Assembly (NCBI RefSeq): GCF_963921235.1
Contig: NC_086097.1
Location: forward strand, 46,750,001 to 46,814,000
Origin: Mobula hypostoma
Lineage: Eukaryota
Direction of reading: 5' to 3'
Length of the DNA stretch: 64,000 nucleotides
The translations under genes were made by a program, and so were the position numbers. The notes under the pieces are model-generated. The model was given only the letters and a program-made list of their open reading frames with translations. It was not told the origin of the DNA and searched no databases. Positions 1 to 62,185 of this stretch are shown piece after piece (within the stretch, counting starts at the first letter, position 1; the number at the start of each line of letters is the position of its first letter).

Positions 1-1321
1 AGGTCTCAAAGCTCTCCGCTTCTTTTTGGATTCCAGACCTAATCAGTTCCCCCCTACCACCACTCTGCTCCGTCTAGCGGAATTAAATTAGTCCTTACTC
101 TTAATAATTTCCCCTTTGGCTCCTCCCACTTCGTCCAAACTAAAGGTGTAGCTATGGGCACCCGTATGGGTCCTAGCTATGCCTGCCGTTTTGTTGGGTT
201 TGTGGAACAATCTATGTTCCGTGCCTATTCTGGTATCTGTCCCCCACTTTTCCTTCGCTGTATCGACGACTGCATTGGTGCTGCTTCCTGCACACATGCT
301 GAGCTCGTTGACTTTATTAACTTTGCTTCCAACTTTCACCCTGCCCTCAAGTTTACCTGGTCCATTTCCGACACCTCCCTCCCCTTGCTAGATCTTTCTG
401 TCTCCATCTCTGGAGACAGCTTATCCACTGATGTCTACTATAAGCCTACTGACTCTCACAGCTATCTGGACTATTCCTCTTCTCACCCTGTCTCTTGCAA
501 AAATGCCATCCTCTTCTCGCAATTCCTCCGTCTCCGCCGCATCTGCTCTCAGGATGAGGCTTTTCATTCCAGGACGAGGGAGATGTCCTTTTTTAAGGAA
601 AGGGGCTTCCCTTCCTCCACCATCAACTCTGCTCTCAAATGCATCTCCTCCATTTCACGCACATCTGCTCTCACTCCATCATCCCGCCACCCCATTAGGA
701 ATAGGGTTCCCCTGGTCCTCAACTACCACCCCACCAGCCACCGGGTCCAACATATTATTCTCCGTAACTTCCGCCACCTCCAACGGCATCCCACCACTAA
801 GCACATCTTTCCCTCCCCCCATCTCTGCTTTCCACAAGGATCGCTCCCTACGCGACTCGCTTGTCCATTCGTCCCCCCCATCCCTCCCCACTGATCTCCC
901 TCCTGGCACTTATCCTTGTAGGTGGAACAAGTGCTACACTTGCCCTTACACTTCCTCCCTTACCACCATTCAGGTCCCCAGACAGTCCTTCCAGGTGAGG
1001 CGACACTTCACCTATGAGTCGGCTAGGGTGATATACTGTGTCCGGTGCTCCCGATGTGGCCTTCTATATATTGGCGAGACCCGACGCAGACAGGGAGACC
1101 GCTTTGCTAAACACCTACGCTCTGTCCACCAGAGAAAGCAGGATCTCCCAGTGGCCACACATTTTAATTCCACATCCCATTCCCATTCTGACATGTCTAT
1201 CCACGGCCTCCTCTACTGTAAAGATGAAGTCACACTCAGGTTGGAGGAACAACACCTTATATTCCATCTGGGTAGCCTCCAACCTGATGGCATGAACATT
1301 GACTTCTCTAACTTCCGCTAA
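1..1321 (+). mobile_element. Penelope-like retroelement, 3' part of ORF (RT C-terminus plus GIY-YIG endonuclease), frameshifted
   Basis: RT motifs GTRMGPSYA, LRCIDD (YIDD-like), LDL, YYKPTDSHSYL in ORF 154-894; C-x2-C/CYTC linker and VIYCVRCSRCGLLYIGET GIY-YIG in ORF 431-1321. Confidence 0.92.
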
Positions 1322-1752
1322 TGCCCCACCTCCCCCTCGTACCCCATCTGTTATTTATTTTTATACACACATTCTTTCTCTCACTCTCCTTTTTCTCTCT
1401 CTGTCCCTCTGACTATACCCCTTGCCCATCCTCTGCGTCCCCCCCCCCACCTCCTTGTCTTTCTTCCCGGACCTCCTGTCCCATGATCCTCTCATATCCC
1501 TTTTGCCTATCACCTGTCCAGCTCTTGGCTCCATCCCTCCCCCTCCTGTCTTCTCCTATCATTTTGGATCTCCCCCTCCCCCTCCCACTTTCAAATCTCT
1601 TACTAACTCTTCCTTCAGTTAGTCCTGACAAAGGGTCTCGGCCTGAAACGTCGACTGCACCTCTTCCTAGAGATGCTGCCTGGCCTGCTGCGTTCACCAG
1701 CAACTTTGATGTGTGTTGCTTGAATTTCTAGCATCTGCAGAATTCCTGTTGT
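1322..1752 (+). repeat. PLE 3' terminal repeat (pseudo-LTR) with hammerhead motif
   Basis: Follows the stop codon; pyrimidine-rich; near-identical copies at 30210-30640 (-), 30893-31289 (+), related at 54985-55380. Confidence 0.85.
1621..1656 (+). ncRNA. Minimal type I hammerhead ribozyme motif, core mutated (CUGACAA)
   Basis: AGTC-CTGACAA-AGGGTCTCGGCCT-GAAA-C-GTC-GACT; helix I AGTC/GACT. Confidence 0.7.
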
Positions 1753-3405: not shown

Positions 3406-3574
3406 AACGGCAGGTTCTGATACAAAGATAGAAGTTATTCAAGGGGCATTTCAAAATGCTTTTTTCTAGCCAGTCCAGTTGACTTCTTGCATGGAGGATG
3501 GAGCAAACCATCAGTATGTCACTAAGAGTTATGATTAGTAGACTTAACAGCTAGAAAATGGACTATTGATATAG

Positions 3575-3776
3575 AGACAACACACACAAAATGCTAGAGG
3601 AACTCAGCAGGCCAGGCAGCATCTATTGAAAGGAATAACAGTGAGTCCTGCTGATGGGTCTTGGCCATAAACATCAACTGTTTATTCCTTTCCACGGATG
3701 CTGTCTGGCCTGCTGAGCTCCTCCAGCATTTTGTGTGTGTTGCCTTGGATTTCCAGCATCTGCAGATTTTCTCGTG
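3575..3776. mobile_element. Fold-back element made of PLE terminal sequence, with TSD
   Basis: Inverted arms ~3578-3642 and ~3677-3742 around a degenerate hammerhead; TSD TATTGATATAG at 3564-3574 and 3777-3787. Confidence 0.85.
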
Positions 3777-4017
3777 TATTGATATAGTGGCATAGTCTTA
3801 ACTCACACTGGCACTTTGGGATTCGAAGTTCATGTACTGAACTGTGTAGCTACTTATGGTAACCATGAAATTAATGGGTTGTTAAAGAAACCAACGTACA
3901 TCCCTAATGACCTTATTGAAGGAAATCTGCCATTTGAACCTAATATGGCCTATGTATGATTCCAGATTCACCTATGTGTTTGTTTCTTAATTGGCTTCTT
4001 AGTTAAGGAGAACATGG

Positions 4018-7399: not shown

Positions 7400-7747
7400 A
7401 GAACATGGGGGTGGACAATATGTGCTACTTGGCAATCCCAGTTATGTCCGTATCCTATGGTAGTATGTAATAAGTCTAAGGAAAAGTTCTACTCATTTTA
7501 CAGTATTGAAGAGTTTTTGTAATTAATAGGAACTGAAAAATGTGACCATGATCTGAATGTAAAAGAGCATGTTTTGAAATCTTTTTTCAATTGAATTTTT
7601 TTTCAATTGAATTGACTTTATTTCTTACATCCTTCACATACAAGAGGAGTTAAAATCTTTATGTTACATCTCTGTCTGAATGTGCAATGTGCAAATGATT
7701 GCATAGTTTTATAAAGCATTGTAATCAATATGCAGTCACTGGTAAAA

Positions 7748-7941
7748 ATCCAATCAGAAACAAGAGAAGATCTGCAGTTGCTGGAAATCCAAGCAACACA
7801 CACAAAATGCTGGAGGAACTCGGCAGGCCAAGCAGCTTGTATGGAAAAGAGTACAGTCGACGCTTTGGCCAGAAACATTAACTGCTTACTCTTTTCCACA
7901 GATGCTGCCTGGCCTGCTGAGTTCCTCCAGCAAGTTGTATG
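7748..7941. mobile_element. Fold-back element made of PLE terminal sequence, with TSD
   Basis: Inverted arms meeting at CAGTCGACGCTTTGGCCAGAAACATTAACTG; TSD AGTCACTGGTAAAA at 7734-7747 and 7942-7955. Confidence 0.85.
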
Positions 7942-8139
7942 AGTCACTGGTAAAATTTACTTCTAAAATACAGTTGGTCATCATGTTCATTCAGAAGTGT
8001 ATAAGTTACTGCATTCATTATGATTATTAGTCAGAACAGTGGCTGAGCAACAGAGAACCATAAAAACTTGTCTTCATGTGTTAGCATAAGTAATTTATTT
8101 TAATTACTAAATCTATTAACTGTGTCTTTTATTTCCCAG

Positions 8140-8690: not shown

Positions 8691-8812
8691 GAGGGTCTCA
8701 GCCCAAAATTTCAACTGTACTCTTTCCCATAGATGCTGCCTAGCCTGCTGAATTCCTGCAGCATTTTGTGTGTTGCTTGGATTTCCAGCATCTGCAGATT
8801 TTCTCTTGTTTG
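8691..8812 (+). repeat. PLE terminal-repeat fragment
   Basis: gggtctcagcccaaaatttcaactg...gatgctgcctagcctgctg...ccagcatctgcag. Confidence 0.7.
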
Positions 8813-13640: not shown

Positions 13641-13879
13641 AGTGATTAAAGAGAAATAACATGCTGTGGGAATGACCAATAGAACTGTTTCGCCTTCAGA
13701 TTGCTATTTCCTTTAACCTTCTGGTGTGGTGTGGAGATTCAGCTACCAGACTTGCAATCCAAAGAGCTAACTTCCATTGCTTCACAGTCGTAGAATTTAA
13801 AATCAGTTTATTTGAGCAAACACCAACTACTGGACTATTGTAAAAGCATACTGCACTTCAGGGGGAAGAAATCTCCCTC

Positions 13880-15720
13880 GGCGAGTTCTGTACCCGCCAC
13901 AACACCCAGCTCTCTCTGTCACCTCCATCTCCAAGCCCAATTATTTGGCAAGGATTCCCCACCTTGCACCAATGGACCTTTTTGCCATCTTCAACCCTCC
14001 TCGCCTTCTTGTACACCCTGCTTTGGTTTTCTGCCTGCTCTGGATCTTTACATCTCTGATTCCCAACAAGACATCAACCATCTCGACTTAAGCACTCCTC
14101 TCTCCTATTCAAACCTTACTCCCTGTGAATGCACTGCCCTCTATTTTCTCTGCACCAATCCCAACCTCAACATCAAACCCACAGACAAAGGGAGTGCTGT
14201 TGTAGTCTGGCGCACTGACCTCTACTTGCTAAGGCCTGGCGGAAACTCTGACACTTCCTCTTACTTGCCCATTGAAAAGGACCCCACTGAGGGCCATCAG
14301 GCCATTGAGTGTGCATACCTTGACTCTATTTTATCCCCTTTGGTTCAGTCCCTTCTCACTTACATCCATGACACTTCCAATGCTCTTCATCTACTCAACA
14401 ACTTCCAAATCCCTGGCCCTGACTGCCTCATTTTCACCATGGATCTCTAGTCCCTATACACGTCTATCCTCCATCAAGAAAGCCTTAAAGCTTTCCACTT
14501 CTTTCTCAACATAAGATCCGACCAGTTCCCCTCCACCATCTTCCTCTGTCTGTTTGGATGGTCCTCACTGTCAACAATTTCTCCTTCGGCTTCTCCCACG
14601 TTTTCTGAACTCATGGGTCCCAGCACTGTGCTCCTTTTCATTGCCAACATGGTGTGTCCATGTTCCATGCCACCCCTGGTAATGCTCCCCAACTCTTTTT
14701 GCAATACTTTGATGACTGTATTGTTGTTGCTTCATGCACCCATGCTAAGCTTGTCAAGTTCAGCAGCTTTGCCTCCAACTTCCACCCTGCCTTTAAATTC
14801 ACTTAGTACATTTCTGACACCTCTGTCCCCTTTCTCAATCTCTCTGTCTCCATATCTGGAGACAAACTGTTTTAGAAAGACAATATATTTTATAAACCTT
14901 CTGATTCCCGCAAGTATTTTGACTATACCTCTTCCCGCACTGACTCCTGTAAATATGCAGTTCCCTTTTCTCAGTTCCTTCATTTCTACCACAACCGTTC
15001 CCAAGATTAGACTTTCCTTACCAACATCAGATGTTCTTCAAAGAGCAGAGTTTCCCTTCCTCCACCATTGATGCTGCCCTCGCCTGCATCTCCTTTATTT
15101 TTTGGACATCCATGCTAACCCTATTTTCTTTCCACCTTAACAAGGATAAAGTTCCTCTTGTCCTCACCTACCAGCCCAGCTCTGCATCCAACATATCATT
15201 CTCCACAACTTCTGACATCTTCAATGGGATCCTACCACCAAATACATCTTTACCTCCCCCCCCCCCACTCCACTCTCCACAAGGATCACTTCCTCCATGA
15301 TTCCCTTCCCATTCATCTCCCTCTTGGCACTTGTACCTGCAAGCGGAAAAAGTGCTACACCTGCCCATTCACCTCCTCACGCACCATCATTCAGGGCTCC
15401 AAACAGATCTTCCAGGTGAGACAATACTTCAGCTACAAATCTAATGGGGTTGTCTACTGCATACGGTGCTCCTGACGTGGTCTCCTCTACAATGGTGATT
15501 GGGAGACCACTTTGTCGAGCACATTTGCCCATCCGCAAAATGAAGGATTTACCAGTGACCAACCATTCAAATCCCCACTCCCATTCCAACATGGTGGTCC
15601 CTGGCCTCCTCTATTGCCACGATGAGGCCACTTTCAGGTTGGAGGAGAACACCTCATATTCCATGTGGGAACCTCCAATCTGATGAGATGAACATTGATT
15701 TCTCTAACTTCTGGTAATTT
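13880..15720 (+). mobile_element. Degenerate Penelope-like element
   Basis: IKPTDKGSAVVVW, IFTMDL, MGPS, KCYTCP, VVYCIRCS fragments; homologous to 1-1321. Confidence 0.85.
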
Positions 15721-15815
15721 TCCCCCTCCCCTTTCCCTCTTCACTCTGAATCCCCTCTTGCCTCTTCTCCTCACCTGCCTCTCACCTCCCCTTCTCCCAT
15801 GGTCCACTCTCCTTT

Positions 15816-25436: not shown

Positions 25437-26031
25437 TGTTAGAATAATTTTGGAGTTTAGGTCATTTACACTTAGCAAATGGCTTTGGCCACCAGTCTTC
25501 TGTTCCTAGAAGCTGTGAATACCAGAATCACAGCCCATTTGTAACAATGCATTTCCTAAAAGCTGTGAATACCAGAATCCCAGTCCAGATGCTGCTGGTG
25601 CCTATGGGATGGATGTAAACTAGAATCTGTGAAGTTTGCATGTAGTTTCAAAGACAGCATTATCTATACTTTGTAAATATGGATTGTTCTTCATGTTAAG
25701 CACGTAAAATACCAAATAAATGTATTGTGGATTCAGTTTGGAACAATGGATTCCTGAATACCAGTCCAGATGCTGCTGGCGCCGGTGGGATGGATGTAAT
25801 CAGAAGGTGTGAAGTTTTGTATATAGCTTCAAAAGAAAGCATTGTCAAAACTTTGTAAATATGGATTGCCCTTTGTGTTTAGCAAATAAATATTGAGCCC
25901 CACACTGGGCCAGCAGACCTTTCCACTGAAAGCATCTCGATATCTACTGTACCTTGCTTTGTCGAATAAAGAACCTGCTTTGTATCTACCAGTAACTCTC
26001 TCTCTCTGGTGATTTCATTCACGCAACAACA
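25437..26031 (+). repeat. 5' LTR
   Basis: TGTTAG...CAACA; internal direct repeats; AATAAA near 25965; homologous to 32905-33468. Confidence 0.92.
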
Positions 26032-26033
26032 TT

Positions 26034-26051
26034 TGGTGGCAGGAGTGGGAT
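26034..26051 (+). promoter_or_regulatory. Primer binding site, tRNA-Leu-like
   Basis: TGGTGGCAGGAGTGGGAT just after the LTR; close to the complement of vertebrate tRNA-Leu 3' ends (TGGTGTCAGGAGTGGGAT). Confidence 0.8.
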
Positions 26052-26465
26052 ACCTTCGTGACCCATCATGTGGCCAGCAATCCTAGCAGTCTATGTTGGT
26101 CAGTATTTTTCTGAAATAGCACTCACACTTGGATCTGTTCGGGTCAGTGGTACACAGGAACACGAGGTATCATGAATGCAAAGCGCTGAACTAGTAGATA
26201 TAAAAGTGGTGTGTGTGCATGCATGTGTGTTTATGTAAGTGAGAAAACTTTGTGTGTTAATTTGGTGAAATGGAGCCACCAGTTGCAAAAGGTGGTAACC
26301 AATGGTTCAGGATGCCAGAGCAGAGGCATGTATACTCGTTCGGGAAGCTGCATTTTAGTGTACACCGTTTTGCAAGTATGATGCAAAGGAATACAGCAGG
26401 CATCATGAGTTCAGGTGCTCAAAAGTGGCGGATTGTGGAATACATAACTCTGCGGTTTTAACTAT

Positions 26466-27443
26466 GTGCTGTTTAACTGGTACCCGTCTTTTATATTTTG
26501 CATAGTGTGGGAATTGGTGTGGGGATATCTCAGGGAGAGGTTTTACCCAGATAGATCTACCAGAATGGTACCTATTGAGGTCAAGCAACATCAGGTTGAG
26601 AACCCTGATGATCTGAGCCAGCCCTTGACTTTGATTACGACCATTCATAAGCCCTTCACCCCCGGGGAGAAACAGAGCATTTTGTCTGAGTTACCCTCAC
26701 TTAAAGTCGCATGTGCGAATTCTGAATCCTGGCGAAAGCCTGAGGGAATGGTTGAAATTCACCAGATGCACCCTAAAGATATACACGTGTTGGTAAAAGC
26801 GAAGTGCCCGAGGAATATGTGGGACAGGATGACACAGAAGATGCGGGATGGTACCTGGGCAACTATCGGGAATGCCAGCAAAGAAGGAGGATATCGCATT
26901 TTTAAAGGGGAAGTGAGGCAGTGACTGGGGGGAGGTGAGAATAACTGGGGAACAATAATGGCAGTAATTCAAAAAGCCGATGAGACAGCCATGGATTATG
27001 CAGAGCGTAAATATCGAGTGTACAAGGAGTATTCCGGGTTGGATAATCCAGGGAGGGATGACCACGTCTTCCTGAAAATGCTGAAGGAAGGCCTGAGCTC
27101 AGCCCACCAGGAAGTTTTAGATTTAGGCATAACGGTGGGGTCAACCTACTCTGCGATAGTTTCATGGGCCAGTGAGTTAGACCAAAGAAAGTGCAGGAGA
27201 AATCGTAAAGTGGCTATAGTTGATGCAGCTGTTGTGATGTCCCAGAAAGTTTGTTTTGCTTGCCAGCAGCTAGGGCACGAAGTGAGGAATTGCTGGAATA
27301 GACGTGGGAGGGTAAAGGAGTTGATATGCTACAGGTGCAGCCTTTTGGGAACTGGTTGGAGGCAGTGTCCAAAACAGAGGAAAGAAAAACAAGTGAACGT
27401 CACAGCAGACACGCAATCTCTCACCCACCAGTGCCCAGTCTGA
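26466..27443 (+). pseudogene. gag: gag (disrupted) with zinc knuckles
   Basis: QKADETAMDYAER (MHR-like), CFACQQLGHEVRNC and degenerate CYRC knuckle. Confidence 0.8.
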
Positions 27444-27529
27444 CCAATCTGACTGTCGATCAGATCATAGAGCGAGTAAAGATGGCTCCTAGGTCAGAAA
27501 AAGATGTGGCGGCGGGCCCCACTGCCAGC

Positions 27530-27860
27530 GCTGGAGACCCGCGGATGTACACAACAGCATTATTAAGGGGACGGCAATGCAATATGTTAGTGGACACAGG
27601 GACATCGGTATTGATAACAGAGTTACCCTTGCCAACAACCAGACAGGCCATTTATATTAGGAGTGTAGGATGGAAAACGGTGGAAGCAGAAAGAAGTGAG
27701 TCGCAAATACTAGAAATCGGGGGAGTGCAGCTTCCAGTGTACTCTGGGTTTGTCCAAATATCAAGAGCACTACCCTTGGAATAGACATCCTAAGGGAAGC
27801 AGGAGTTTTTATAGATTCGGGAAAGGGAGAAATAATATGGACAAGTCAGGGGCAGCGAAT
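27530..27860 (+). pseudogene. pro: Retroviral-type aspartic protease (disrupted)
   Basis: DPRMYTT...MLVDTGTSV; frameshifted LG.DIL motif near 27775. Confidence 0.75.
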
Positions 27861-27995
27861 GCGTACAACCAACAGAATACACAGCCTGGCTAGTATAGTC
27901 ACAGCTGCCCCGATCACCAGAGACTGGAGCCAGGATGGTGTCTATGGGTTACTTTGTCAGCAGTTCCCAGCAGTGTGGGCTACACACAAGCAAGA

Positions 27996-29419
27996 TGTCA
28001 TGGGGTGGGGGGGGGGTGCTGTTGGCGGACCCAAATGCAAGACACAGACACAGAAGTACTAGGAACAGGACTTGACTAGAGAGCTGGGACAAGAACACAG
28101 ATTTGGGCTGGGACATTGGCTAGGCAAGCGGGACCAGGACAAGGAGCTGGGAACTAGGAGCCCGGGCTTGGACTCCGAGCCGGATACTGGACAAGGACCC
28201 AGAACATGAGTCTTGACTCGGGCTTGGACCCCGGAACTAGGGAGGACATGACGTGGCTACAGGACTGGACGTGCTCTTGGGGACAGGACTAGGCGAGGCT
28301 ACGGGACAGAACAAGAGACTCCTAGGCAGGATAAGGGAACTCCAGCACAGGACGAGAACATGAAGCCTTGACTTGGTACTCAGAAACAGCCAAGCCTTGG
28401 ACTTGGGATGACAGGAACGCTGGATAGCCAGCGCCTGTTCCCCAGGTCTCAATGCAAGAGGACATGGCTTTAAGGTAAGGGGTGGGAAGTTCAAGGGGGG
28501 ATATTAGAGGAAGAATTTTTACTCAGAGAGTGGTTGGATTGTGGAATGCACTGCCTGAGTCAGTGGTGGAGGCAGATACACTTGTGAAGTTTAAGAGACT
28601 ACTAGACAGGTATATGGAGGATTTTAAGGTGGGGGGTTATATGGGAGACAGGGTTTGAGGGTCGGCACAACATTGTGGGCCGAAGGGCCTGTAATGCGCT
28701 GTACTATTCTATGTTCTATGTTCTATGTTCTAACACAGAGCCTTGGTCTTGGGGAGGACAGGAACACAGAGCCTTGGTCTAGAGCACGGGAACATGGAGC
28801 CCTGGACTTGAGAGACAGGAACACAGAGCCGGGACCCCTCCTTGGGAATAGGACTTGGGGCCGGGGCTCTACACAGAATGCTGAAGACAACGAGACAGTT
28901 CTCAACACTAGGTAGCAGCAAACGGCCAGACCTACCTAGCGAAGGCATAGACACAGAGATGGTTCCTAACACTAGGTAGTGGCAAATGGCCAGACCTTCC
29001 TAGCGAAGGTGTGGACACAGAGATGGTTCCAACTCAATGATAGACAGTTCCTTATCTTGACACAGCAAGGCTCCAGTCTCGCTTCAGTGGGAGAACTTGA
29101 CAAGGTTGCAGGGCAAGGCTCCAGAAGGAAGGGAAAGGGAAGGGAACAGTCCAGCCTCAGGGTAACAGCAAAGACAGCCTGGCTTACCCAACAGAGGCAA
29201 GGACAGATTCAACCACAGGGTAACAGCAAAGCCAGCCTGACTTACCCCACAGAGACGAGGACAGGATACTGACAAGACAGACCAGCAACCACACACGAAC
29301 CCAGGGCCACTTATATTCCCAGCCCCAAGACAAGCATCAGGTGCTTATGATTAAGCCCAACTGAAACAAGGGACAGCCGGAAGACCCGGAGTCCGGAGTC
29401 CACAGACCGGACCATGACA
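27996..29419 (-). mobile_element. Solo LTR (Gypsy-like, TGTCA...TGACA) nested in proviral pol
   Basis: TSD CAAGA at 27991-27995 and 29420-29424; removal restores VWATHKQDCGRI; family copies at 41867 and 55612. Confidence 0.85.
28437..28731 (+). mobile_element. CR1 3' end nested in the solo LTR
   Basis: RGHGFKV..FFTQRVVGLWNALP; (TTCTATG)n tail. Confidence 0.8.
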
Positions 29420-29745
29420 CAAGATTGTGGTCGAATAAAGATAAACCCAGTTAAAATAGAGGAGAGTCTGTATAAACCCCATAAGCAGTACCCTATAAAA
29501 ACTGACAGACTGGCAGCTATCTCGGGTATAGCGAAGGAACAAAAACACCAGGGGATACTCAGAGAGACTGCGGCCACTACTAACTCATCTGTATGGCCAG
29601 TAAAGCCCAGTGGATCATGCCTACATATTAACAATAGGCTATACTGCCCTTAAGACCATGCCGAGATTGCATCCCAGAGTGGGGGGCCCTGAAACGATCC
29701 TGAATGGCTTGTCTCCAGAACCTAAGGTTTTTCCAGTCCTTCCGA
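29420..29745 (+). pseudogene. pol: RT N-terminal remnant; remainder of RT and RNase H deleted
   Basis: KQYPIK...QGILRE...NSSVWPVKP.G..LTIGYTALK..P...ETIL..L...KVFPVL, then a jump to the integrase linker; no YxDD. Confidence 0.8.
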
Positions 29746-30308
29746 GGGCAGACATTATTGCAGGGGAACAAGAGGCAATTGAAATTGCAAGTGTGCAGGA
29801 AGAAACAACAGAAGTTGGTTTATTAAAATTATAAGAGGTGGAGACAGAAGAGAAGGAAAAATGGAGGAGAAAAGGGGCAAAGGAAGGACCAGACGGGGAG
29901 GCAAGAGTCGCGATGGCCCCATCCTGTATTAGACAGATACTATTGAAGTTATATCATGGGGCGATGCACCAGGGAAGGCAAAGCATGATCACAACCCTCT
30001 GGCAGGACTGGTGGTGGCCAGGGATGGGCAGGGATGTTGAGAAGTTCTGCCGCCGTTGTATCATTTGTGCCCAGCATAACCCTGGTAAGGGCAGAAAGCT
30101 ACAGCTTGCAAATCAGCCACGGCCGAGGGGACCCTGGGAAAACATCCAGATAGACTTCACAGGGCCCCTGCCAAAAAGCAGGGGGAAAAGCTACTGCCCA
30201 GTAATTATGCAAACAACAGGAATTCTGCAGATGCTGGAAATTCAAGCAACACACATAAAAGTTGCTGGTGAACGCAGCAGGCCAGGCAGCATCTCTAGGA
30301 AGAGGTGC

Positions 30309-30344
30309 AGTCGACGTTTCAGGCCGAGGCCCTTCATCAGGACT
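30309..30344 (-). ncRNA. Minimal type I hammerhead ribozyme motif, intact core
   Basis: Minus strand AGTC-CTGATGA-AGGGCCTCGGCCT-GAAA-C-GTC-GACT. Confidence 0.8.
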
Positions 30345-31193
30345 AACTGAAGGAAGAGTGAGTAAGGGATTTGCAAGTTGGAAGGGGAGGGGGAGATCCA
30401 AAATGATAGGAGACGACAGGAGGAGGAGGGATGGAGCCAAGAGCTGGACAGGTGATTGGCAAAAGGGATACGAGAGGATCATGGGACAGGAGGTCCGGGA
30501 AGAAAAACGGGGGGGGGACCCAGAGGATGGGCAAGGGGTATATTCAGAGGGACAAAGGGAGAAAAGGGAGAGTGAGAGAAAGAATGTGTGTATAAAAATA
30601 AGTAACAGATGGGGTACGAGGGGGAGGTGGGGCATTAGCGGAAGTTAGAGAAGTCGATGTTCACGCCATCAGGTTGGAGGCTACCCAGACGGAATATAAG
30701 GTGTTGTTCCTCCGACCTGACCAAGACTTCTCTAACTTCCGCTAACATTGACTTCTCTAACTTCCGCCAACATCGACTTCTCTAACTTCGCCAAGATGAA
30801 GCCACACTCAGGTTGGAGGAACAACACCTTATATTCCCTCTGGGTAGCCTCCAACCTGATGGCATGAACATCGACTTCTCTAACTTCCGCTAATGCCCCA
30901 CCTCCCCCTCGTACCCCATCTGTTACTTATTTTTATACACACATTCTTTCTCTCACTCTCCTTTTTCTCCCTCTGTCCCTCTGACTATACCCCTTGCCCA
31001 TCCTCTGGGCTTTTCCCCCCCTCCCCCTTTTCCTTCTCCCTGGGCCTCCTGTCCCATGATCCTCTCATATCCCTTTTGCCAATCACCTGTCCAGCTCTTG
31101 GCTCTATCCCTCCCCCTCCTGTCTTCTCCTATCATTTTGGATCTCCCCCTCCCCCTCCCACTTTCAAATCTCTTACTAGCTCTTCCTTCAGTT

Positions 31194-31229
31194 AGTCCTG
31201 ACGAAGGGTCTCGGTCTGAAACGTCGACT
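31194..31229 (+). ncRNA. Minimal type I hammerhead ribozyme motif, intact core
   Basis: AGTC-CTGACGA-AGGGTCTCGGTCT-GAAA-C-GTC-GACT. Confidence 0.78.
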
Positions 31230-32904
31230 GCACCTCTTCCTAGAGATGCTGCCTGGCCTGCTGCGTTCACCAACAACTTTTATGTGTATTGCCCAGTAAT
31301 TATGGATCACTTCACCCGGTGGGTGGAGGCTTTCCCAACAAGGGACTGCACCACCCGCACCGCTGCATGGCTCCTAGTTCAGGAAATCCTCTCAAGGTGG
31401 GGAACCCCAGTTCAGGTGGATTCAGATCAGGGAGCACATTTCACAGGGAAAGTGATGAAGGAAATGTGCCGACTGCCAGAGATTCGACAGCGGTTCCACA
31501 TACCCTACCACCCCCAGAGTTCAGGGATGGTAGAAAGGATGAACCGAACAATCAAGAATGCATTAACCAAAGCTATAGCTGAGACAGGAAAGACATGGAA
31601 TGATGTATTACCAGGAATCCTAATGAGATTGCGCGCAACCCCAAACTACACGCTGGGTCTCAGCCCCTACGAACTGTTGATGGAGCGAGCAATGCAACTC
31701 CCCTGTGGGGTAATTACGGGTTGCTGGGAGCCTGGGGCTTACAGGGATAGAATGACACAATATGTGAAAGACCTTAAAGTGTTGAAGGACCAAGCAAAAT
31801 AACAGCAGCGAATCGCTGATCAGAAAGAGCCAGAGGGAAAGGGGATAGTCCTTCCACAGTCCGGTGACCAAGTTATGGGGAGGGTGCTGCCAGAAAGGCC
31901 AGGGTTTGCCCGCAGGTGGATAGGACCATAGATGGTACTCTTAACCAATGATACGTATATCTATGTACAGACTCGGCGAGGCAGCCAGTGGAAACACTGG
32001 ACTCAGGTTAAAGCATACAACTCACCTTCTTGTTGCTCCTACAGACAGAATGGGGAACCAAGTGTACCCAGTAACCGTGTAATTACAGAGAACCTAAGAG
32101 AGGAACACCAGCTGACCATGGCAGACCTGACCACAGCTGATGAAAACATACTCGGAGAAAACGCCAAGGCAGAAAACGCTGAGAGCGTGGCAGAAGACAC
32201 TGAGAGCATGTTGGAAATCCATGAACATTCTGCTAAGGTGTGATGATGATGGTACTCGGTAAGGAAGGCTGGTTGCTAAAGGTAGATAATTAGTTTAATA
32301 GCATAGAATAGAAAAATATTGGAAAATAGATGGGGAGGGATTTTTAAGTTAAAGCAGAGGCAGCAAGTTCCACAATTTCAATGGCATTTCAGACTGCACT
32401 CGGCATCTGAAAGCAATCACACCCAGTCTGAGGAGCTGGGCCCTTTTCAGCAGTTGGGCCAGTGATTGACCGGACAGTTAGGAAGGGGGTGCCACCGGGG
32501 AGAGGTCCCTACAGGCATTTACGTAGAGGCCACCCCAACCCCTTCCGGTACATCGATGAGAGGGCCTGTGGGTGCTCCTGCAAAGAGAGTTTCAGCAACC
32601 AGAGAACAAAGAGCTGAAGACAAAGGAAAGTGATGAAGCTGCAATCAGACTGCAGGGAAAGATCCGACAGGCACACGAAAGAAGCCGCATTTCTAAAGAC
32701 TTGTTCAAATTTCTGGAACAGCCTCTCTGCTTAATATTTGGTAGGTAGCAATTAGGGATGGATACGGTAGATATCGAGGCACACAAAAATTGGGGGGATA
32801 ATTCTGAGGCAGGGCGTTTTTGCTGCCCTATTTGAGTAGATCCTCCTAGTTTGGCCTTTCCTGGTACAAATTTATTTTTGTCCAGGAGGGCCAAGAGGAA
32901 GGAC

Positions 32905-33468
32905 TGTTAGAGTAAGTTTTGGGGTTAGGTCATTTACACTTAGCAAATGGCTTCGGCCACCAGTCTTCTGTTCCTAAAAGCTGTGAATACCAGAATCCCA
33001 GTCCATTTGTAACAAAGTATTTCCTAAAAGCTGTGATTACCAGAATCCCAGTCCAGACGCTGCTGGTGCCTGTGGGATGGATGTAAGCCAGAAGCTGTGA
33101 GGTTTGCATGTAGTTTCAAAGACAGCATTATCTATGCTTTGTAAGTATGGATTGTCCTTCATGTTAAGCACATAAAATACCAAATAAATGTACTTTGGAT
33201 TCAATTTGGAACAATGAATTCCTGAATACCAGTCCAGATGCTGCTGGTGTGAAGTTTTGTATGTAGCTTCAAAAGAAAGCATTGTCTATACTTTGTAAAT
33301 ATGGATTGCCCTTTGTGTTTAGCAAATAAGTATCCAGCCCCACACAGGGCCAGCAGACCTTTCCATCAAAAGTGTCTCAATGCCTGCTGTACCTTGTTTT
33401 GTCGAATAAAGAAGCTGCTTTGTATCTACCAGTAACATTCTCTGTGGTGATTTCATTCATGCAACACA
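32905..33468 (+). repeat. 3' LTR, preceded by polypurine tract
   Basis: PPT AGGAGGGCCAAGAGGAAGGAC ending 32904; TGTTAG...CA; diverged copy of the 5' LTR. Confidence 0.92.
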
Positions 33469-41866: not shown

Positions 41867-42232
41867 TGTCACATGGGGGAGGGGGCACTGGGAGCGGACC
41901 CAAATGCAAGACACAGACTCTGAAGTACTAGGAACAGGCCAGGACTAGAGACTAGAGTTAGGGACGTGACTGGATGCAGATTAGGAGCTGGGACAAGAAC
42001 ACAGACTTGGGCTAGGACATTGGCTAGGCAAGCCGGACCAGGACTAGGAACTGGGAACTAGGAGCCTGGGCTTGGACTCCGAGCCAGAGACTGGACAAGG
42101 ACCCAGAACCTGGGTCTTGACTTGGGCTCGGACCCCGGAACTAGGCGAGGACATGACGTGGCTACAGGACTGGACATGGCTTGGGTTCCTCGAGGCGCAG
42201 ACATGACGAGGCTTGGGTTTCTCGGGGCGAGG
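41867..42232 (-). mobile_element. Truncated LTR of the 27996-29419 family
   Basis: TGTCA start on +, gcggacccaaatgcaagacacagac shared with other copies. Confidence 0.8.
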
Positions 42233-42239
42233 GCATCAC

Positions 42240-42440
42240 CACCAGGCCGTGAAGAATATGGCGGTACAGCGGTAGTCTTTAAGAAAAAAGCCGAAATAAA
42301 CAAGCTAATTAATTAGGTGCCACCCGGCACGTAAATGCCGGCCCAGATCAAAGGCTTTTTTTCTTAAAGATGTGCTGGGTGCATTCCGGCCGCCGCTGTA
42401 CCGCTGCATTCTTCATGGCCTGGAGGTTGGAGACCCACTG
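42240..42440. mobile_element. Palindromic MITE (hAT-type end)
   Basis: Inverted blocks 42242-42272/42393-42423 and 42276-42292/42353-42370; end ggttggagacccactg. Confidence 0.65.
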
Positions 42441-47809: not shown

Positions 47810-49500
47810 TCCAAGATATTGTCGATGCATTCAGAGAATTTAAGATACCGGGCCTTACAGCAAACAATCACTAAACAAAAAAAATCCACTAGCCTGCTCT
47901 CTTGTCCAATAGCTTCCTCTGGAAAAACAATCAGTGCAAGACCTTGGAAAGCATACAGCACTCTGCTCATACCTTGGGAGCCACCAGAGGCAGGCATTGA
48001 TGATGAAATTCAGCAGTGCATTATATAGACCAGTGCAGCCACTTCAATCCCTGGTCCTGATCCCCCTTTACACTTCTACTCCCCATCAGAAAAGCCTTAA
48101 AGCTCCATGTTTCTTTCTGGATAACAGACTGAACCAATTCCCCTCCATCAGTACCCTCCTCCATCTGGCAGAACTGGATTTCCCCTTCAACAATTTCTCC
48201 TTGGGCTCCCCTCACTTTCTCCAATCCCAAGGTGTAGCCACAGGCACCGCATGGGCCCAGCTATGCCTCCCTTTACATTAGCTGCGTGGAACAGTCAATG
48301 TTCCAAGCCTACGCCGATAAACACTCCACAACTTTCTGTACTATATCAACAACTGCATTGGTACAGCTTCCTGCATCCATACTGAGCTTGTCAGTTTCAT
48401 CAACTTGCCTCCAATTTCCAACCTCCCCTCAAATTTACTTGGTCCATCTCTGATACTTTTCTCACCTTTCTTGATCTCTCTGTCTCTATCTCTGGAGACA
48501 GACTGTCTATTGAAATCTTTTACAGACCTACGGAATCTCACTGTAATCTTAACTATATCTCTTCCCATTTTGTCACTTGTAAAAATGCCATTCCTTTTTC
48601 TCAGTTCCTCCGGCTCCACTGCATCTGTTCCCAGGATGAGACTTTCCACTCAAGAACATCTGAGATGTCCTCCTTTTCCAAAGTAAGGAGTTTCCCTTCC
48701 ACCACCAGAATGCTGCACTCATTCGCATCTCCTCCATTTCTCAAACATCTGTTCTCACTCTAACCTCTCACCATCATAACAGGGATGGGTTTCCCCTTGT
48801 CCCTCCCAACCATTCTATGAGCCTGCATATGCAGCACATCATTCACTGTAACCTCCTCCGTCTTTAACAGGATCCTACTACTGAGCACACCTTTTCCTCT
48901 GGGATTGCTCTCTACATGACCTCATCATTCATCCCTCCCCACTAATCCCCCTCCTGTCCCTGCAAGCAGATTAAGTGCCACATCTGCCTCTACACTTCCT
49001 CCCTCACCACCATTCAGGGTCCCACACTGTCCTTTCAGGATGGAAAACACTTCACCTGTAAGTTTGTCAAGGTCATCTATTTTATCTGGTGTTCTTGGTG
49101 CGGCCTCCTTTACATTGGTGACACCCAACGTAGATTAGTGGATAGCTTTGTTGAGCACCTTCACTCTGTCCACTGCAAAAGGCAGGATTTATTGGTGGCC
49201 ACCCATTTCAGCAGACTTCCCCTTACCACATGTTGGTCTTTGGCCTCCTCTACTGCCATGATGAGGCCACAGCCAGGTTGGAGTTGCAACACATTATATT
49301 CTATCTGGATAGCCACCAACCTAATGGCATGAACAACAGCTTCTATAATATTTCCCCTTCCCCCTTTCTCTCCTTCCCCTTTTTCCATTGCCCATTTTGG
49401 TTCCCTCTTATCACTTTTCTTCTCCTCACCTGCCTCTGGTGCCCCTTCTCCTTCCCTTTCTTCCATAGTCAACTATCTCCTGTCAAATGTCTTCTTTTCG
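47810..49500 (+). mobile_element. Degenerate Penelope-like element
   Basis: Homologous to 1-1321 (GVATG..MGPSYA, YINNCIG, LYIGDT, QPNGMN). Confidence 0.82.
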
Positions 49501-50827: not shown

Positions 50828-52014
50828 GTAAGCCTTCGGACTAATCACTGGCATTTAAAGTTCATTTTACAAACACACAATTGTCATTGTTTAAGACCCA
50901 GATAATCCAATTACAAACAAGAATTAAAAGAGATAAAATACACAGTGTATTTTATAGTGTAGTACTTTAGTCCATTTAGTCCATTTTATAGTTAATTGTA
51001 AATGGTGATTTTTCTTTATATTTTGTACTCTCTGTATTGCAAATGCAGCATCTGCTTTAATCTAAAAATATATTATAAAACAGAGTGCCCAAAAGAGAGT
51101 CTAATGTAAATTTTCCCAATTAAAAATTATTAAGATTTTTTCAAAACTATTTTTAACATACTAAATATTTGGATGAACTTGATCTAAATACCTTTGACCC
51201 ACCTGAATCACAAAGGGAAACTGAAAATTTGTTCACCAAGTTTCTGTGGGAGGAGCTGCAATTTAAAACAGTCTTACAAATATATCCAAGAGAAAGAACT
51301 CAGTTCAGTGCGATTGCGAAGATATTATTACAGAGATTTTTCCATAGTGACCAAGGAATCACATTTTTGCGGCTGCTTCAGGCGGAATGGGAATATCTTT
51401 CTTTCTTAATCTAAAGATGGCTAAGGTTTGAACCAAATCATGACTGCCCTGGACATGGTATCATCAAGCATTGCTTCAACATGTTTCACTCGAAAGAAAA
51501 TTGCACATTTGACTTTTAAACTCCCTTTAAATTTCCCAGCAGCTTGTACAATATAAATCTATTGACAGTGCAACAATTACTAATAAGGCTCCAACTCTTC
51601 CTTTTTAATTTTTAAACTCTCTGTCAATAAATGCCACAAGTAATATTGAACTAAAAGAAGAAATCCCAATAATGCTGCTCAGAAATTTGGATACAGAAAC
51701 ATTATGCAAAGACATAAGATTATTAGTTGAAAAGTTATGATCACATACACTTGAGGCTACAATGACTGGCAATGCTGTAGAGAAAATGTCCTTACCTCTC
51801 AAATACTTATTATCCATCTGATCTACTTTTTCAATTTAAACAACCTAAATTGGTATCCTGTTCAACCTAGTTGAGCATTAACAAGATTCAAGGACAATCA
51901 TTGAAATTTGTTGGCCTTAATTTCAAAACTCAGAACTTCTCCCATGGACAGCTAATGTTGGTTGCTCCAAAGCTGTAGATAAAAATAACCTCTATGTTAT
52001 GGAAAGCAGAAAGT

Positions 52015-52325
52015 TGGGGGAAGGGAAAGATGTGCTTGGTGGTGGGATCCCGCTGGAGGTGACGGAAGTTACGGAGAATTATACATTGGACACGGAGGCT
52101 GGTGGGGTGTTAGGTGAGGACAAGAGGAACCCTATCCCGAATGGGAGGATGGGGTGAGAGCAGATGTGCGTGAAATGGGAGAGATACATTTGAGGGCAGA
52201 GTTGATGGTGGAGGAAGGGAAGCCCTTTTCTTTAAAAAAGGAAGATATCTCCTTTGCCCTGGAATGAAAAGCCTCATTCTGAGAGCAGATGCAGCAGAGA
52301 CGGAGGAATTGAGAGAAGGGGATGG
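52015..52325 (-). mobile_element. PLE internal fragment
   Basis: Reverse complement of roughly 515-830. Confidence 0.8.
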
Positions 52326-54561: not shown

Positions 54562-55378
54562 CCATCTCTTCCCACCGATCTCCCTCCTGGCACTTATCCT
54601 TGTAAGCGGAACAAGTGCTACACATGCCCTTACACTTCCTCCCTCACCACCATTCAGGGCCCCAGACAGTCCTTCCAGGTGAGGCAACACTTCACCTGCG
54701 AGTCTGCTGGTGTGATATACTGTGACCAGTGCTCCCGGTGTGGCCTTTTATATATTGGTGAGACCCGACACTGATTGGGAGACCGTTTCATTGAACACCT
54801 AGCTTTGTCCGCCAGAGGAAGCAGGCAATACATTTTAATTCCATGTCCCATTCCGATATGTCAATCCATGGGCTCCTCTACTGTCGAGATGAAGCCACAC
54901 TCAGGTTGGAGGAACAACACCTTATATTCCGTCTGGGTAGCCTCCAACCTGATGGCATGAACATTGATTTCTCTAACTTCCATTAATGCTCCTCCTCCCC
55001 TTCTTACCACATCGCTCCTATTTATTTCTTCTTCTCTCTTTCCTTCTCACAATAACTCCTTGCCTGTTCTCCACCTTCCTCTGATGCTCCCCTCCCCCTT
55101 TCTTTCTTCCAAGGCCTTCCGTCCCATGATCCTCTCCCTTCTCCAGCTCTGTATCACTTTTGCTAATCAACTTTCCAGCTCTTAGCTTCATCCCTCCCCT
55201 CCTGTCTTCTCTTATCATTTCAGGTTTCCCCCTCCCCCTCCCACTTCCAATCTCTAACTATCTCTTTTCTCAGTCAGTCCTGACGAAGGGTCTTGACCCG
55301 AAACGTTGACTGTACTTCTTCCTGTGGATGCTGCCTGGCCTGCTGCGTTCCACCAGCATTTTGTGTGTGTTGCTTTGA
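54562..55378 (+). mobile_element. PLE 3' end (GIY-YIG plus terminal repeat)
   Basis: CKRNKCYTCP, VIYC..CSRCGLLYIGET; terminal repeat follows. Confidence 0.88.
55275..55312 (+). ncRNA. Minimal type I hammerhead ribozyme motif, best-preserved copy
   Basis: CAGTC-CTGACGA-A-GGGTC TT GACCC-GAAA-C-GTT-GACTG; 5-bp helix I, Watson-Crick helix II. Confidence 0.82.
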
Positions 55379-58140
55379 TCCTGGATTTCCTTATTTGCAG
55401 ACCCCAATTAGTTTGGATTGGCAACAACATCTCCTCTACGGTCTCCATCAGCAGAGGTGCACCATAGGTGTGTGTGCTTAGATCCCTGCTCTATTCGCTT
55501 TACACCTATGATTGTTTGGCTAAGCACAGCACCAATGCCATATTCAGGTTTGCTGATGATACCACTATTGTGGGCTGAATCAGGGTGGTGATGAATCAGC
55601 ATATAGGAGGGTGTCATAATGGGGGAGTGCTGGGAGCGGACCCAAATGCAAGACACAGACACAGAAGTACTAGGAACAGGACTTGACTAGAGAGCTGGGA
55701 CAAGAACACAGACTTGGGCTAGGACATTGGTTAGGCAAGCGGGACCAGGACTAGGAACTGGGAACTAGGAGCCCGGGCTTGGACTCCGAGCCGGATACTG
55801 GACAAGGACCCAGAACCTGGGTCTTGACTCGGGCTCGGGCCCCAAAACTAGGCGAGGACATGACGGGGCTACAGGACTGGGCATGGCTTGGGTTCCTCGA
55901 GGCGAGGACATGACGAGGCTTGGGTTCCTCGAGGCAAGGACATGAACACAGAGCCTTGGTCTTGAGCACAGGAACATGGAGCCTTGGACTTGAGAGACAG
56001 GAACATGGAACACAGAGCTGGGACCCCTCCTTGGGAACAGAACGTAGGGCCCGGACTCATACACAGAATGCTGAACATGATGAGACGGTTCCCAACACTA
56101 GGTATCGGCAAATGGCCGGACTTACCTAGCGAAGGCGTGGACACAGAGACAGTTCCCAACACTAGGTAGCGGCAAATGGCCCGGCCTACCTAGCAAAGGT
56201 GTGGACACAGAGACAGTTCCAACTCAACGATAGACAGTTCCTTATCTTGACACAGCAAGGCTCCGGTCTCACTCCGGTGGTTGAACTTGATAAGGTTGCA
56301 GCCTAGGCTCCAGACACAGGTTGCAGGCAAGGCTTCAGAAGGAAGGGGAAGGGAAGGGAACAGTCCAGGCTCAGGGTAACAGCAAAAACGGCCTAGCTTA
56401 CCCAAAGGAGACAAGGACAGGAAGGGACAGATCCAACTGCAGGTAACAGCAAAGGCAGCCTGACTTATAGCACAGAGGCAAGGACGGGATACTGACAAGC
56501 TGCTACCTAGTGTTGGGAACTGTCTCTGTGTCCACGCCTTCACTAGGTAAGTCCGGCCATTTGCCATTACCTAGTGTTGGGAACTGTCTCGTCGTGTTCA
56601 GCATTCTGTGTATGAGTTCTGGCCCTACATCCTGTTCCCAAGGAGGGGTCCCGGCTCTGTGTTCCATGTTCCTGTCTCTCAAGTCCAAGGCTCCGTGTTC
56701 CCATGCTCGAGACCAAGGGTCTGTCTTCATGTCCTCTCCTCAAGGAACCCAAGCCTCCTGATGTCCTCGCCTCAAGGAACCCAAGCCTCGTCATGTCCTC
56801 GCCTCAAGGAACCCAAGCCATGAAGAACCCTAGCCTTGAGGAACTCAAGCCATGTCCAGTCCTGTAGCCACATCATGTCCTTGCCTGGTTCTGGGTCCTT
56901 GTCCAGTCTCTGGCTCGGAGTCCAAGCCCAGGCTCCTAGTTCCCAGTTCCTAGTCCTGGTCCTGCTTGCCTAGCCGATGTCCTAGCCCAAGTCTGTGTTC
57001 TTGTCCCAGCTCCTAGTCTGCATCCAGTCACGTCCCTAACCCTAGTCAAGTCCTGTTCCTAATACTTCAGTATCTGTGTCTTGCATTTGGGTCCGCTCCC
57101 AGCACTCCCTCATTATGACAGAACAGTCCAGTCCAAGATCAGAATCATGTGCCTCAATTAAGGCACACAACAGGACAAGGGAAAACCAGAAAACCGGAGA
57201 ACCTGGAATAAGGAACGATGGACCGGACCGTGAACCGGAATCCGGCCTTCACGGACCGGACCATGACAGCGGGAGATTAAAAATTTGGCTGAGTGGTGCC
57301 GTAATAACAACCTCTCATTCAATGTCAGCAAGGCCAAGGAACTGATTACAGACTTCAGGCGAGGGAATCCAGAGGACCATGGGCCAGTCCTCATTGGAGG
57401 ATCAGAGGTAGAGAAAGTGAGCAACTTTAAATTCCTGGCTGTTACTATTTCAGAGGATTTGTCCAGGACCCACTATTGTGTTAGCACAACACCACCTCTG
57501 CTTCCTCAGGAGTCTTAAGAGATTCACAGAGAAACTTTGACAAACTTCTATAGATGTGCAGTGGAGAGTGTATTGATTGGCTGCATCACATTCTGGTATG
57601 GAAATACCAATGCCTTTGAATGGAAAATTCTACAAAAGGAGGTGGATTTGGCCCAGTCCATCATGGGTAAAAGCCTCCCAATCACTGAGCACATCTACAT
57701 GTAACACTGTCGTAGGAAAGCAGCATCCATCATCAGAGATCCCCACCACCCAGGTCATGCTCTCTTATCACTGTTGCCATTAGGTAGAAGGTACAGGTGC
57801 CTCAGAACTCGCACCACCAGGTTCAAGAACAGTTACTACCACTTAACCATCAGGTGCTTGAATAAAAGGGAATGCCTGCAGTCAGTTTCCCATCATTGAA
57901 AAGTCCCCACAACCAATGACCTCACTTTAAGGCCATATTCTCATGTTCTCGTTATTTGTTGCTATTTATTTATATTTTCATTTGCACAGTTTGTTGTCTT
58001 CTGTACTCTGGTTGATCTTTCATTGATCCTGTTATAGATACCATGCTATAGATTTGCTGAGTATGCCCACAGGAAAATGAATCTCAGGGTCATATATAGT
58101 GATATTTATGTACTTTGATAATAAATTTTACTTTGAACTT
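55379..58140 (+). mobile_element. Rex1/Babar LINE interrupted by LTR composite 55612-57268
   Basis: RFADDTTIVG before the insert; WCRNNNLSFNVSKAKELITDFR after; actttgaactt tail. Confidence 0.8.
55612..57268. mobile_element. LTR composite: solo LTR containing an inverted partial copy of the same family (~56503-57120)
   Basis: TGTCA...TGACA ends, imperfect TSD GAGGG/GCGGG, second TGACA at 57116-57120. Confidence 0.82.
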
Positions 58141-61180: not shown

Positions 61181-62185
61181 GGAAATTCAGTACCAATGCC
61201 CACCATTCCTGAAGCAGATTGACTTTAAAAAAGGGAATCTGCTCATGCGAAATTGGAACTGTGTTTCATCACCATTTTTGAGTGAGCCTTTTGAAACAGC
61301 ATCAGTGAGACTAATACCACCATTTTAGCTTTTGGAGGCTGATGACTTCAGGCTTCCCAGTATTTAATTTAGGAACATTAGATGCTATGCTGGAGGAAGG
61401 ATGGAGGAGTGGGGTGGGAAAGAAGTTGTTACAGGTGAAAGTCTCACTAAGATTGTACGGATAAGAACAAAATACAGTTCTGCAGTGGAGGAGGATGATG
61501 TAGAAACATTGGAGGGGTTGTTTTCATTAGCTATGTAATGAGCACTTAGGATGCTATTTATGGCAATGATCAGAGCCACTTTGGTATTGTGTTACAAATG
61601 GGCACAAACTTGGGAGTGTACAACATATACAAGGTCTTTTGACAGGAGGCTATAAACGGATTGGAGATATTCCACTTGTAACAGTATTACATTATACTTT
61701 CATTGACTTAGTAAGAAATAAAGATATATTTTCTAAACTGCCTGTAATTAAGAATATTATTTCTAATAATTGGTTCTGAGTGTGTTCTCAATTAAAGAAG
61801 AAACACTTCATGCTTTGCTAATTACCAATTATGATGAACGATTTGATGGCAAATGGTTTACTTTTAAATATGAAGACCAATATATATGCTAACAATATTT
61901 ACTGAAAGCAACAAAAAAATCTGCAAATGCTGGAAATCAGAACTAGAAACAGGTATTTATCCCAATGTGCAGGTCAGGCAACATCTGTGGCACATAGTTA
62001 ACATTTTACATTCTGTTGACACTTTTTCCTTTTTACCAGTGCTGCCTCACCTGCTGATTGATTCCGGCATTTTCTGTTGATTGAAAGCAAATCTCAAATT
62101 TTTTTGAAAACTTCGACCAATTGTAATTGACTAGAAGTTTTTGTGTATTTTAATGGAATTATAACAGTAATTTCCTTTTGCCTAG

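Follow-up and report, generated by a model that had tools for sequence, protein, structure and literature searches.

An inverted pair of Penelope-like element 3′ ends in Mobula hypostoma with arms of apparently different subfamily type

Introduction

How inverted copies of Penelope-like elements (PLEs), and the short tails on only one side of them, come about is described as open in passages of three papers (PMC11167929, PMC8557442, and PMC3846280). Inverted pLTR copies enclosed by a single TSD, one copy bearing a 31-bp tail, have been reported (PMC3846280), a 30- to 40-bp extension is frequently confined to one end (PMC8557442), and Drosophila Penelope has a 34- to 37-bp repeat and inverted termini (PMC2377424). 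Head-to-head copies have been read as products of self-priming at a palindrome (PMC3846280, Discussion). The models differ in one prediction: fold-back synthesis uses one template for both arms, whereas two-ended priming allows two. The inverted PLE pair at 30195 of the window (the whole 64,000-nt stretch of M. hypostoma DNA that was analyzed) is a useful mechanistic test case for self-priming versus two-ended priming.

Insertion architecture and host element

The insert (30210 to 31289) is 1,080 nt long and lies between exact 15-nt direct duplications (Table 1), which confirms the original prediction of a 1.08-kb inverted PLE pair with a perfect 15-bp TSD in an integrase gene. The duplicated 15-mer has no other occurrence on either strand of the 64-kb window, and the adjoining letters differ at both edges. 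Its first 3 letters also fit the continuation of the element, so the true duplication is 12 to 15 nt. The left boundary is fixed by relatives of the host element: among the matches listed, 8 of 32 contig pieces end at 30208 to 30209 and none crosses. The arms are two 5′-truncated PLE 3′ ends, both with the 3′ end outward at a TSD edge, 93% alike when aligned and without an ORF.

Two other kinds of element were considered and rejected. Both arms contain the same 3′ 470 nt and poly(A) is absent, which excludes an L1-type twin-priming product; a DNA transposon or MITE with long terminal inverted repeats was discarded because the two termini show a 39-nt offset and the arms consist of a retroelement ORF end and pLTR.

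The insert splits the host integrase between its H2C2 domain and most of the core: with the flanks searched as separate pieces, Integrase_H2C2 was found to the left and rve to the right. The best solved-structure match of this integrase is that of a foamy virus (E 8e-18), and the host may be either a Gypsy-type element or an endogenous retrovirus. Its LTRs show 48 differences in 562 columns, and the PLE arms are younger than this LTR pair (4.5% versus 9.1%). The 30195 insertion is an ordinary dead PLE copy, of a kind already described, inside a dead LTR element.

Between 25437 and 33466 the host also retains gag- and protease-like remnants (by eye), lacks most of pol, and carries at least two further nested inserts besides the PLE pair. 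Elsewhere in the window, a large nested inverted repeat arrangement unrelated to PLEs lies at 55612 to 57120 (arms 301 nt long at 90% identity and 129 nt long at 95%), with related copies at 28016 to 29425 and 41894 to 42251. An open frame at 62131 to 62835 matches the Sec6 (exocyst) domain (E 2.6e-29) and is probably a host exon.

Table 1. Positions of the inverted PLE pair, its host element, and the copies used for comparison
Feature	Position	Strand	Basis or remarks
Host decayed LTR retroelement	25437..33466	+	LTRs about 25437-26029 and 32905-33466; integrase gene interrupted by PLE insert
TSD, left copy	30195..30209		15 nt; host integrase coding sequence; exact match to 31290-31304
Left arm: 5′-truncated PLE 3′ end (last endonuclease-domain codons, pLTR, hammerhead, tail)	30210..30720	-	93.4% identical to sister copy 1236-1752; apparent derived-subfamily letters at 30543, 30379, 30367, 30360
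Tail, optional 36- to 39-nt extension, left arm only	30210..30245	-	Alignments
Minimal type I hammerhead, left arm, core intact	30309..30344	-	Pattern scan, stem and palindromic helix III check
5′ half of the 12-bp inverted repeat, with the end of the left arm directly at its base	30709..30720	-	Partner 30661-30672
Junction: 4 unassigned letters and three short sense copies of ORF-stop segment	30721..30792	+	15- to 22-nt exact matches
Right arm: 5′-truncated PLE 3′ end without tail	30790..31289 (start approximate)	+	Shares 95% identity with copy 1221-1719 and carries older letters at 30985, 31159, 31171, 31178
Minimal type I hammerhead, right arm, intact core and a single G-U pair in stem II	31194..31229	+	Pattern scan, stem and palindromic helix III check
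TSD, right copy	31290..31304		First 3 nt double as microhomology to element
Sister copy, same PLE family, RT and GIY-YIG coding region still visible	1..1752	+	Used to name family
Comparison pair 3575	3564..3787		11-nt TSD; short end left, tail right; turn at hammerhead stem I
Comparison pair 7748	7734..7955		14-nt TSD; tail left; arms in different 2-nt indel classes; turn at GGCC palindrome

PLE family and hammerhead motifs

The sister copy (93 to 95% identical to the arms) has 156 homologues with an RVT_1 annotation, some of them also annotated with GIY-YIG. The best named homologues are shark proteins (64 to 67% identity), and one full-length homologue maps across both frames. Its Pfam match to GIY-YIG (E 0.004) is below the curated cut-off, the RT piece has no Pfam match, and the endonuclease piece has no match among solved structures. 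Read on this copy, a single ORF with a PLE-type RT followed by a C-terminal GIY-YIG indicates that the insert belongs to the EN+ PLE type. Identity with Naiad was rejected, as a C-terminal EN and a hammerhead conflict with Naiad as portrayed in the pertinent passages of PMC8557442.

The motif scan placed 11 PLE 3′ ends in the window: three inverted pairs account for 6, and 5 are solo; three of the solo ends were checked for a TSD or a hidden partner arm, and neither was found in those three. The family is very abundant, with 157,269 contigs matched in sequencing run X1, and a 24-nt family motif had no locus in metagenome contigs or in viral contigs. Older PLE fragments of the same group, 69 to 86% identical to the sister copy, lie at 51997 to 52325 (-), 48096 to 49348 (+), 13869 to 15731 (+), and 54562 to 55375 (+).

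Each of the two divergent 3′ ends was predicted to hold an intact hammerhead core, and the pattern scan bore this out: in both motifs the core (CUGANGA/GAAA/GUC) is intact and stem I has 4 bp, and only three sites in the window fit the pattern. Searches of Rfam returned no hammerhead match at the gathering score or at E values up to 10, and hairpin-type chance matches only. The two hammerhead 51-mers fold no better than shuffled sequences (z scores of -1.1 and +0.6), and the lowest-energy fold of the right-arm 51-mer differs from the hammerhead fold. Weak folding is expected of dimer-dependent motifs, so folding provides no support. The tail by itself shows no stable fold (z 0.0), and structure in the 101-nt 3′ end is weak (z -1.9). 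Metazoan PLE minimal type I hammerheads, as outlined in parts of PMC4209133, share the 4-bp helix I, the unpaired base before helix II, and a small palindromic helix III that requires dimers; unlike those hammerheads, the motifs predicted here sit on opposite strands, so a single transcript would not carry both in sense. The hammerhead of the sister copy (1624 to 1659) has a G-to-A change at a conserved core position (CTGACAA), unlike either arm.

End points and tails

The insertions at 3575 and 7748 are also real inverted pairs (TSDs of 11 and 14 nt), and each has a tail on one arm only, as predicted. Measured from a shared anchor, the short ends of pairs 3575, 7748, and 30195 lie at 49, 41, and 45 and the long ends at 80, 92, and 84, giving offsets of 31, 51, and 39 nt. 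The claim that the short arm stops about 35 to 45 nt earlier holds strictly for one pair of three, although 7748 gives 41 when its roughly 10 extra letters are left out. The short ends lie within the predicted TTTT(G/A)TGTG tract or up to about 8 nt beyond it. Among the three pairs of the window, end points form two clusters that are looser than claimed.

Among the matches listed (24 of 2,226), a loose end at 30245 is seen in one of four runs, X5, where 142 family contigs with mixed flanks stop there; it lies within 1 to 4 nt of the position where the right arm stops, and depth falls about 50-fold at 30210 to 30211, where the left arm stops (X1 and X5). The clustering of ends in two windows, with which the loose end and the depth drop concur, makes random end points unlikely. 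Tail-to-body depth, weighed as a gauge of how many copies carry a tail but discounted because depth is no measure of copy number, is about half in three of the four runs and is above that of the next bin in X9. If each end picked its site at random, a one-sided tail in all three pairs would have a chance of about 1 in 8. No cut-site motif shared by the three TSDs was seen by eye. The extra letters of pair 7748 (7748 to 7757) stand between the tail end and the TSD, beyond the end of the solo copy at 8692 to 8812.

Junction and turn point

The arms are separated by a junction of about 70 nt, absent from the original prediction, in which the copied segment adjoins the inverted repeat downstream, at the ORF stop codon. 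In the 1,752-nt sister copy, every other perfect stem is shorter than the 12-bp inverted repeat, and none of 200 local shuffles reached 12 bp. All three pairs turn at a short inverted repeat. Such repeats are the only places where two antisense cDNAs can anneal, which would explain why the two arms of a pair are matched in length, although arm length varies across the pairs, between about 100 and 500 nt. The right arm begins 15 to 20 nt further upstream in the element than the left arm reaches, so that the left cDNA, in its present form, cannot have been its template; local fold-back synthesis at the junction is likely, without accounting for the whole right arm.

The 12-bp inverted repeat is conserved within the endonuclease coding region of the PLE family (1236 to 1287 and 30661 to 30720) and may serve as an RNA signal besides being a joining site. 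Several family contigs jump back about 30 to 45 nt near the ORF end (30640 to 30698), which suggests that slippage at the 12-bp hairpin recurs in other family copies.

Arm differences and the number of templates

Of 463 ungapped columns, 29 differ between the arms; outside the poly-C region, the count is 19 of 433. The predicted arm difference within poly-C is present (a 10-nt length difference and 10 substitutions), but such tracts mutate fast, and these differences were set aside as evidence. Arm divergence is about half the distance between the host LTRs, an amount that by itself is compatible with ageing from one template. Over the first 147 aligned columns there are only 2 differences, both in a CpG context.

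Family contigs from four sequencing runs (including X1, X5, X9, and X20, the last more distant than X1 and X5) were compared with the left arm as the reference. Letter shares were taken from 40 of 126 difference rows and are based on depth rather than copy number, with a reference that favors left-type contigs. Among the rows listed, 12 of the 19 non-poly-C sites have a row for the right-arm letter, 1 has a third letter only, and 6 have none. The left letter is rare at 7 of these 12, where the right letter makes up 88 to 99% in X1 and X5; judged by these shares, the seven rare letters are private changes of the left arm. Both letters are common at the other five, of which 30471, a CpG, was dropped and 30543, 30379, 30367, and 30360 were kept. 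At these four sites the right letter accounts for 41, 39, 35, and 28% in X1, for 52, 68, 44, and 38% in X5, and for 99, 99, 99, and 94% in X20, and it is the letter of both the sister copy and the older copy at 54886. The summed X1 depth of the left letter is 0.96 to 2.2 million at the four sites versus 0.02 to 0.19 million at the seven rare ones. Three of the four lie within 20 nt, and the shares were read site by site, not as a haplotype.

Three of six arm transversions fall at family-polymorphic sites (P of 5e-5, 2e-3 with the clustered two merged, and 7e-3 with the polymorphic sites doubled), assuming uniform mutation and an arm with no more than 13 polymorphic transversions, a count that is possibly incomplete. 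On these rough P values, private mutation from one template would explain the four-site pattern poorly. The left arm appears to carry letters spread in the X1/X5 lineage, and the right arm appears to carry older ones. The arms share family-variable letters at 30602, 30307, and 30257, which makes them either close relatives (sister types) or mosaics.

A 2-nt indel divides the 3′ ends of the window into two classes: 6 are short, 4 are long, and 1, grouped with the long ones, has one extra letter. Pair 7748 has one arm in each class, and the arms of pair 3575 are roughly concordant. As far as the letters indicate, the 30195 pair, and probably also 7748, has arms of different subfamily type. The proposed use of two RNA templates gains support from the four non-CpG polymorphic sites and the indel class of 7748, but not from the poly-C differences on which it had been based.

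Arms made from one template, by fold-back or by double priming of identical RNAs, might have become different through later ectopic gene conversion of one arm. A single tract of about 185 nt or more would be required, or else two shorter ones, and so abundant a family offers plentiful donors. The near-identity of the first 147 columns and the clustering of three diagnostic sites in 20 nt fit such a tract, and mutation density does not speak against it, because a converted tract brings the private changes of its donor. However, conversion requires a second event, and pair 7748 is also discordant, the second of three; moreover, the first 147 columns are coding, and the sister copy too differs at only 3 to 4 sites there. 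Closely spaced inverted arms would be expected to convert each other toward identity, which also counts against this explanation, and it is considered unlikely.

Self-priming fold-back at the palindrome, with a copy that stops before the tail and later point mutations as the source of the arm differences, is already strained and has little probability left. It is the published proposal for rotifer Penelope elements (PMC3846280) and would explain the one-sided tail and the matched arm lengths in all three pairs. The left arm ends exactly at the 12-bp inverted repeat, and the junction contains sense copies of the segment beside its partner half; an inverted repeat is thus present at the turn, but the second arm is not a copy of the first. 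The four non-CpG differences equal common family variants and run in a consistent direction, and the further upstream reach of the right arm also argues against fold-back.

An assembly or polishing artefact, in which one arm was overwritten by other family reads or arms from different loci were joined, is harder still to credit. The family is highly repetitive, and none of the listed family contigs spans the insert or its junction. Nevertheless, the exact TSD lies within the host coding frame and host relatives stop at its edge, polishing by majority would have erased the 8 rare letters that the left arm retains, and, as a weaker point, the junction bins have depth in three of the four runs. 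Least probable of all are two successive insertions, a later copy of another subfamily having entered in the opposite direction at the 5′ end of the first: this would suit the different subfamily types, and the purified PAc protein (Poseidon, Anolis carolinensis) cuts its own ORF-pLTR junction in vitro (PMC11167929), but one TSD surrounds both arms, whose 3′ ends lie at its two edges, the junction has no second TSD, and the layout is identical in all three pairs.

Proposed integration mechanism

The pair probably arose in one integration event, with both ends primed on two different pLTR templates. The element protein would cut both target strands 12 to 15 nt apart, as the TSD suggests, and each target 3′ end would prime reverse transcription. 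One end would start at a distal site, so that the tail is included, and the other at a proximal site 36 to 39 nt upstream, where a 3-nt match between primer and template may help the start. The letter pattern would result from copying of two pLTR templates of sister subfamilies active simultaneously, present either as two RNAs or as two units of one tandem transcript; multi-copy PLE transcripts have been proposed (PMC11167929). Both cDNAs would be antisense and joinable only at an inverted repeat. The junction suggests that the left cDNA stopped at the strongest hairpin of the element and annealed to its partner half, that slippage then produced three copies of the next segment, and that the left cDNA was finally joined to the right arm.

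Relation to known systems

The inverted pairs of Adineta vaga Pen2a_Av and Pen2 (PMC3846280, in part) resemble the 30195 pair in having a 5′-truncated inverted copy, one TSD, a one-ended tail of 30 to 40 nt, and an inverted repeat at the turn. They differ in TSD length (8 to 10 nt versus 12 to 15 nt here), and here both arms are truncated and lack an ORF. In addition, subfamily letters differ between the arms here, which self-priming as presented for A. vaga does not predict.

Purified PAc cuts and extends both strands in vitro and has two internal RT start sites separated by the tail, with no strand difference in start site; it is predicted to be a dimer (PMC11167929). It shares with the present family a hammerhead upstream of the start sites, whereas the ATT motif of PAc is missing from the cuts of the 30195 insertion. 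In the sections of PMC11167929 on both-strand extension, this activity is not linked to inverted copies or to two templates.

In L1 twin priming, both target ends also prime and the cDNAs join by microcomplementarity, and two-L1 bridges consist of distinct 5′-truncated L1s joined at their 5′ ends, as in the PLE pair (bioRxiv 10.1101/2024.08.27.596794, in part). According to the same portions of that preprint, however, twin priming uses one RNA and gives nonoverlapping arms with one poly(A), whereas both PLE arms start at the element 3′ end; two-L1 bridges involve nicks at two distant sites in rearrangements, whereas the PLE pair occupies one site and is apparently routine.

The layout, the two start sites, and both-strand priming are already published, so the geometry is not new. 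As for the defined two-ended priming mechanism of the original prediction, the two end points and the priming at both ends are supported, and largely known from that work, but three pairs of three do not establish obligate asymmetry. Tracing the arms to different subfamily types is the addition over published work and, at the level of sequence, favors two-ended priming on two templates over self-priming. A literature search that covered sources other than subscription papers (older PLE reviews being among the latter) found no report of PLE pairs with arms from different templates.

Implications for PLE integration

The family is very large and has diagnostic letters, so scoring young pairs for agreement or conflict between their arms can decide the question. 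As a tentative and rather doubtful extension, PLEs might integrate as an asymmetric dimer with two RNAs, in which one subunit always uses the distal start and the other the proximal start, each on its own strand of an 11- to 15-nt staggered cut, and the cDNAs are joined at element hairpins; self-priming would then be wrong for most pairs. If this were true, head-to-head copies would be routine two-template chimeras, pairing and recombining subfamilies or cargo RNAs.
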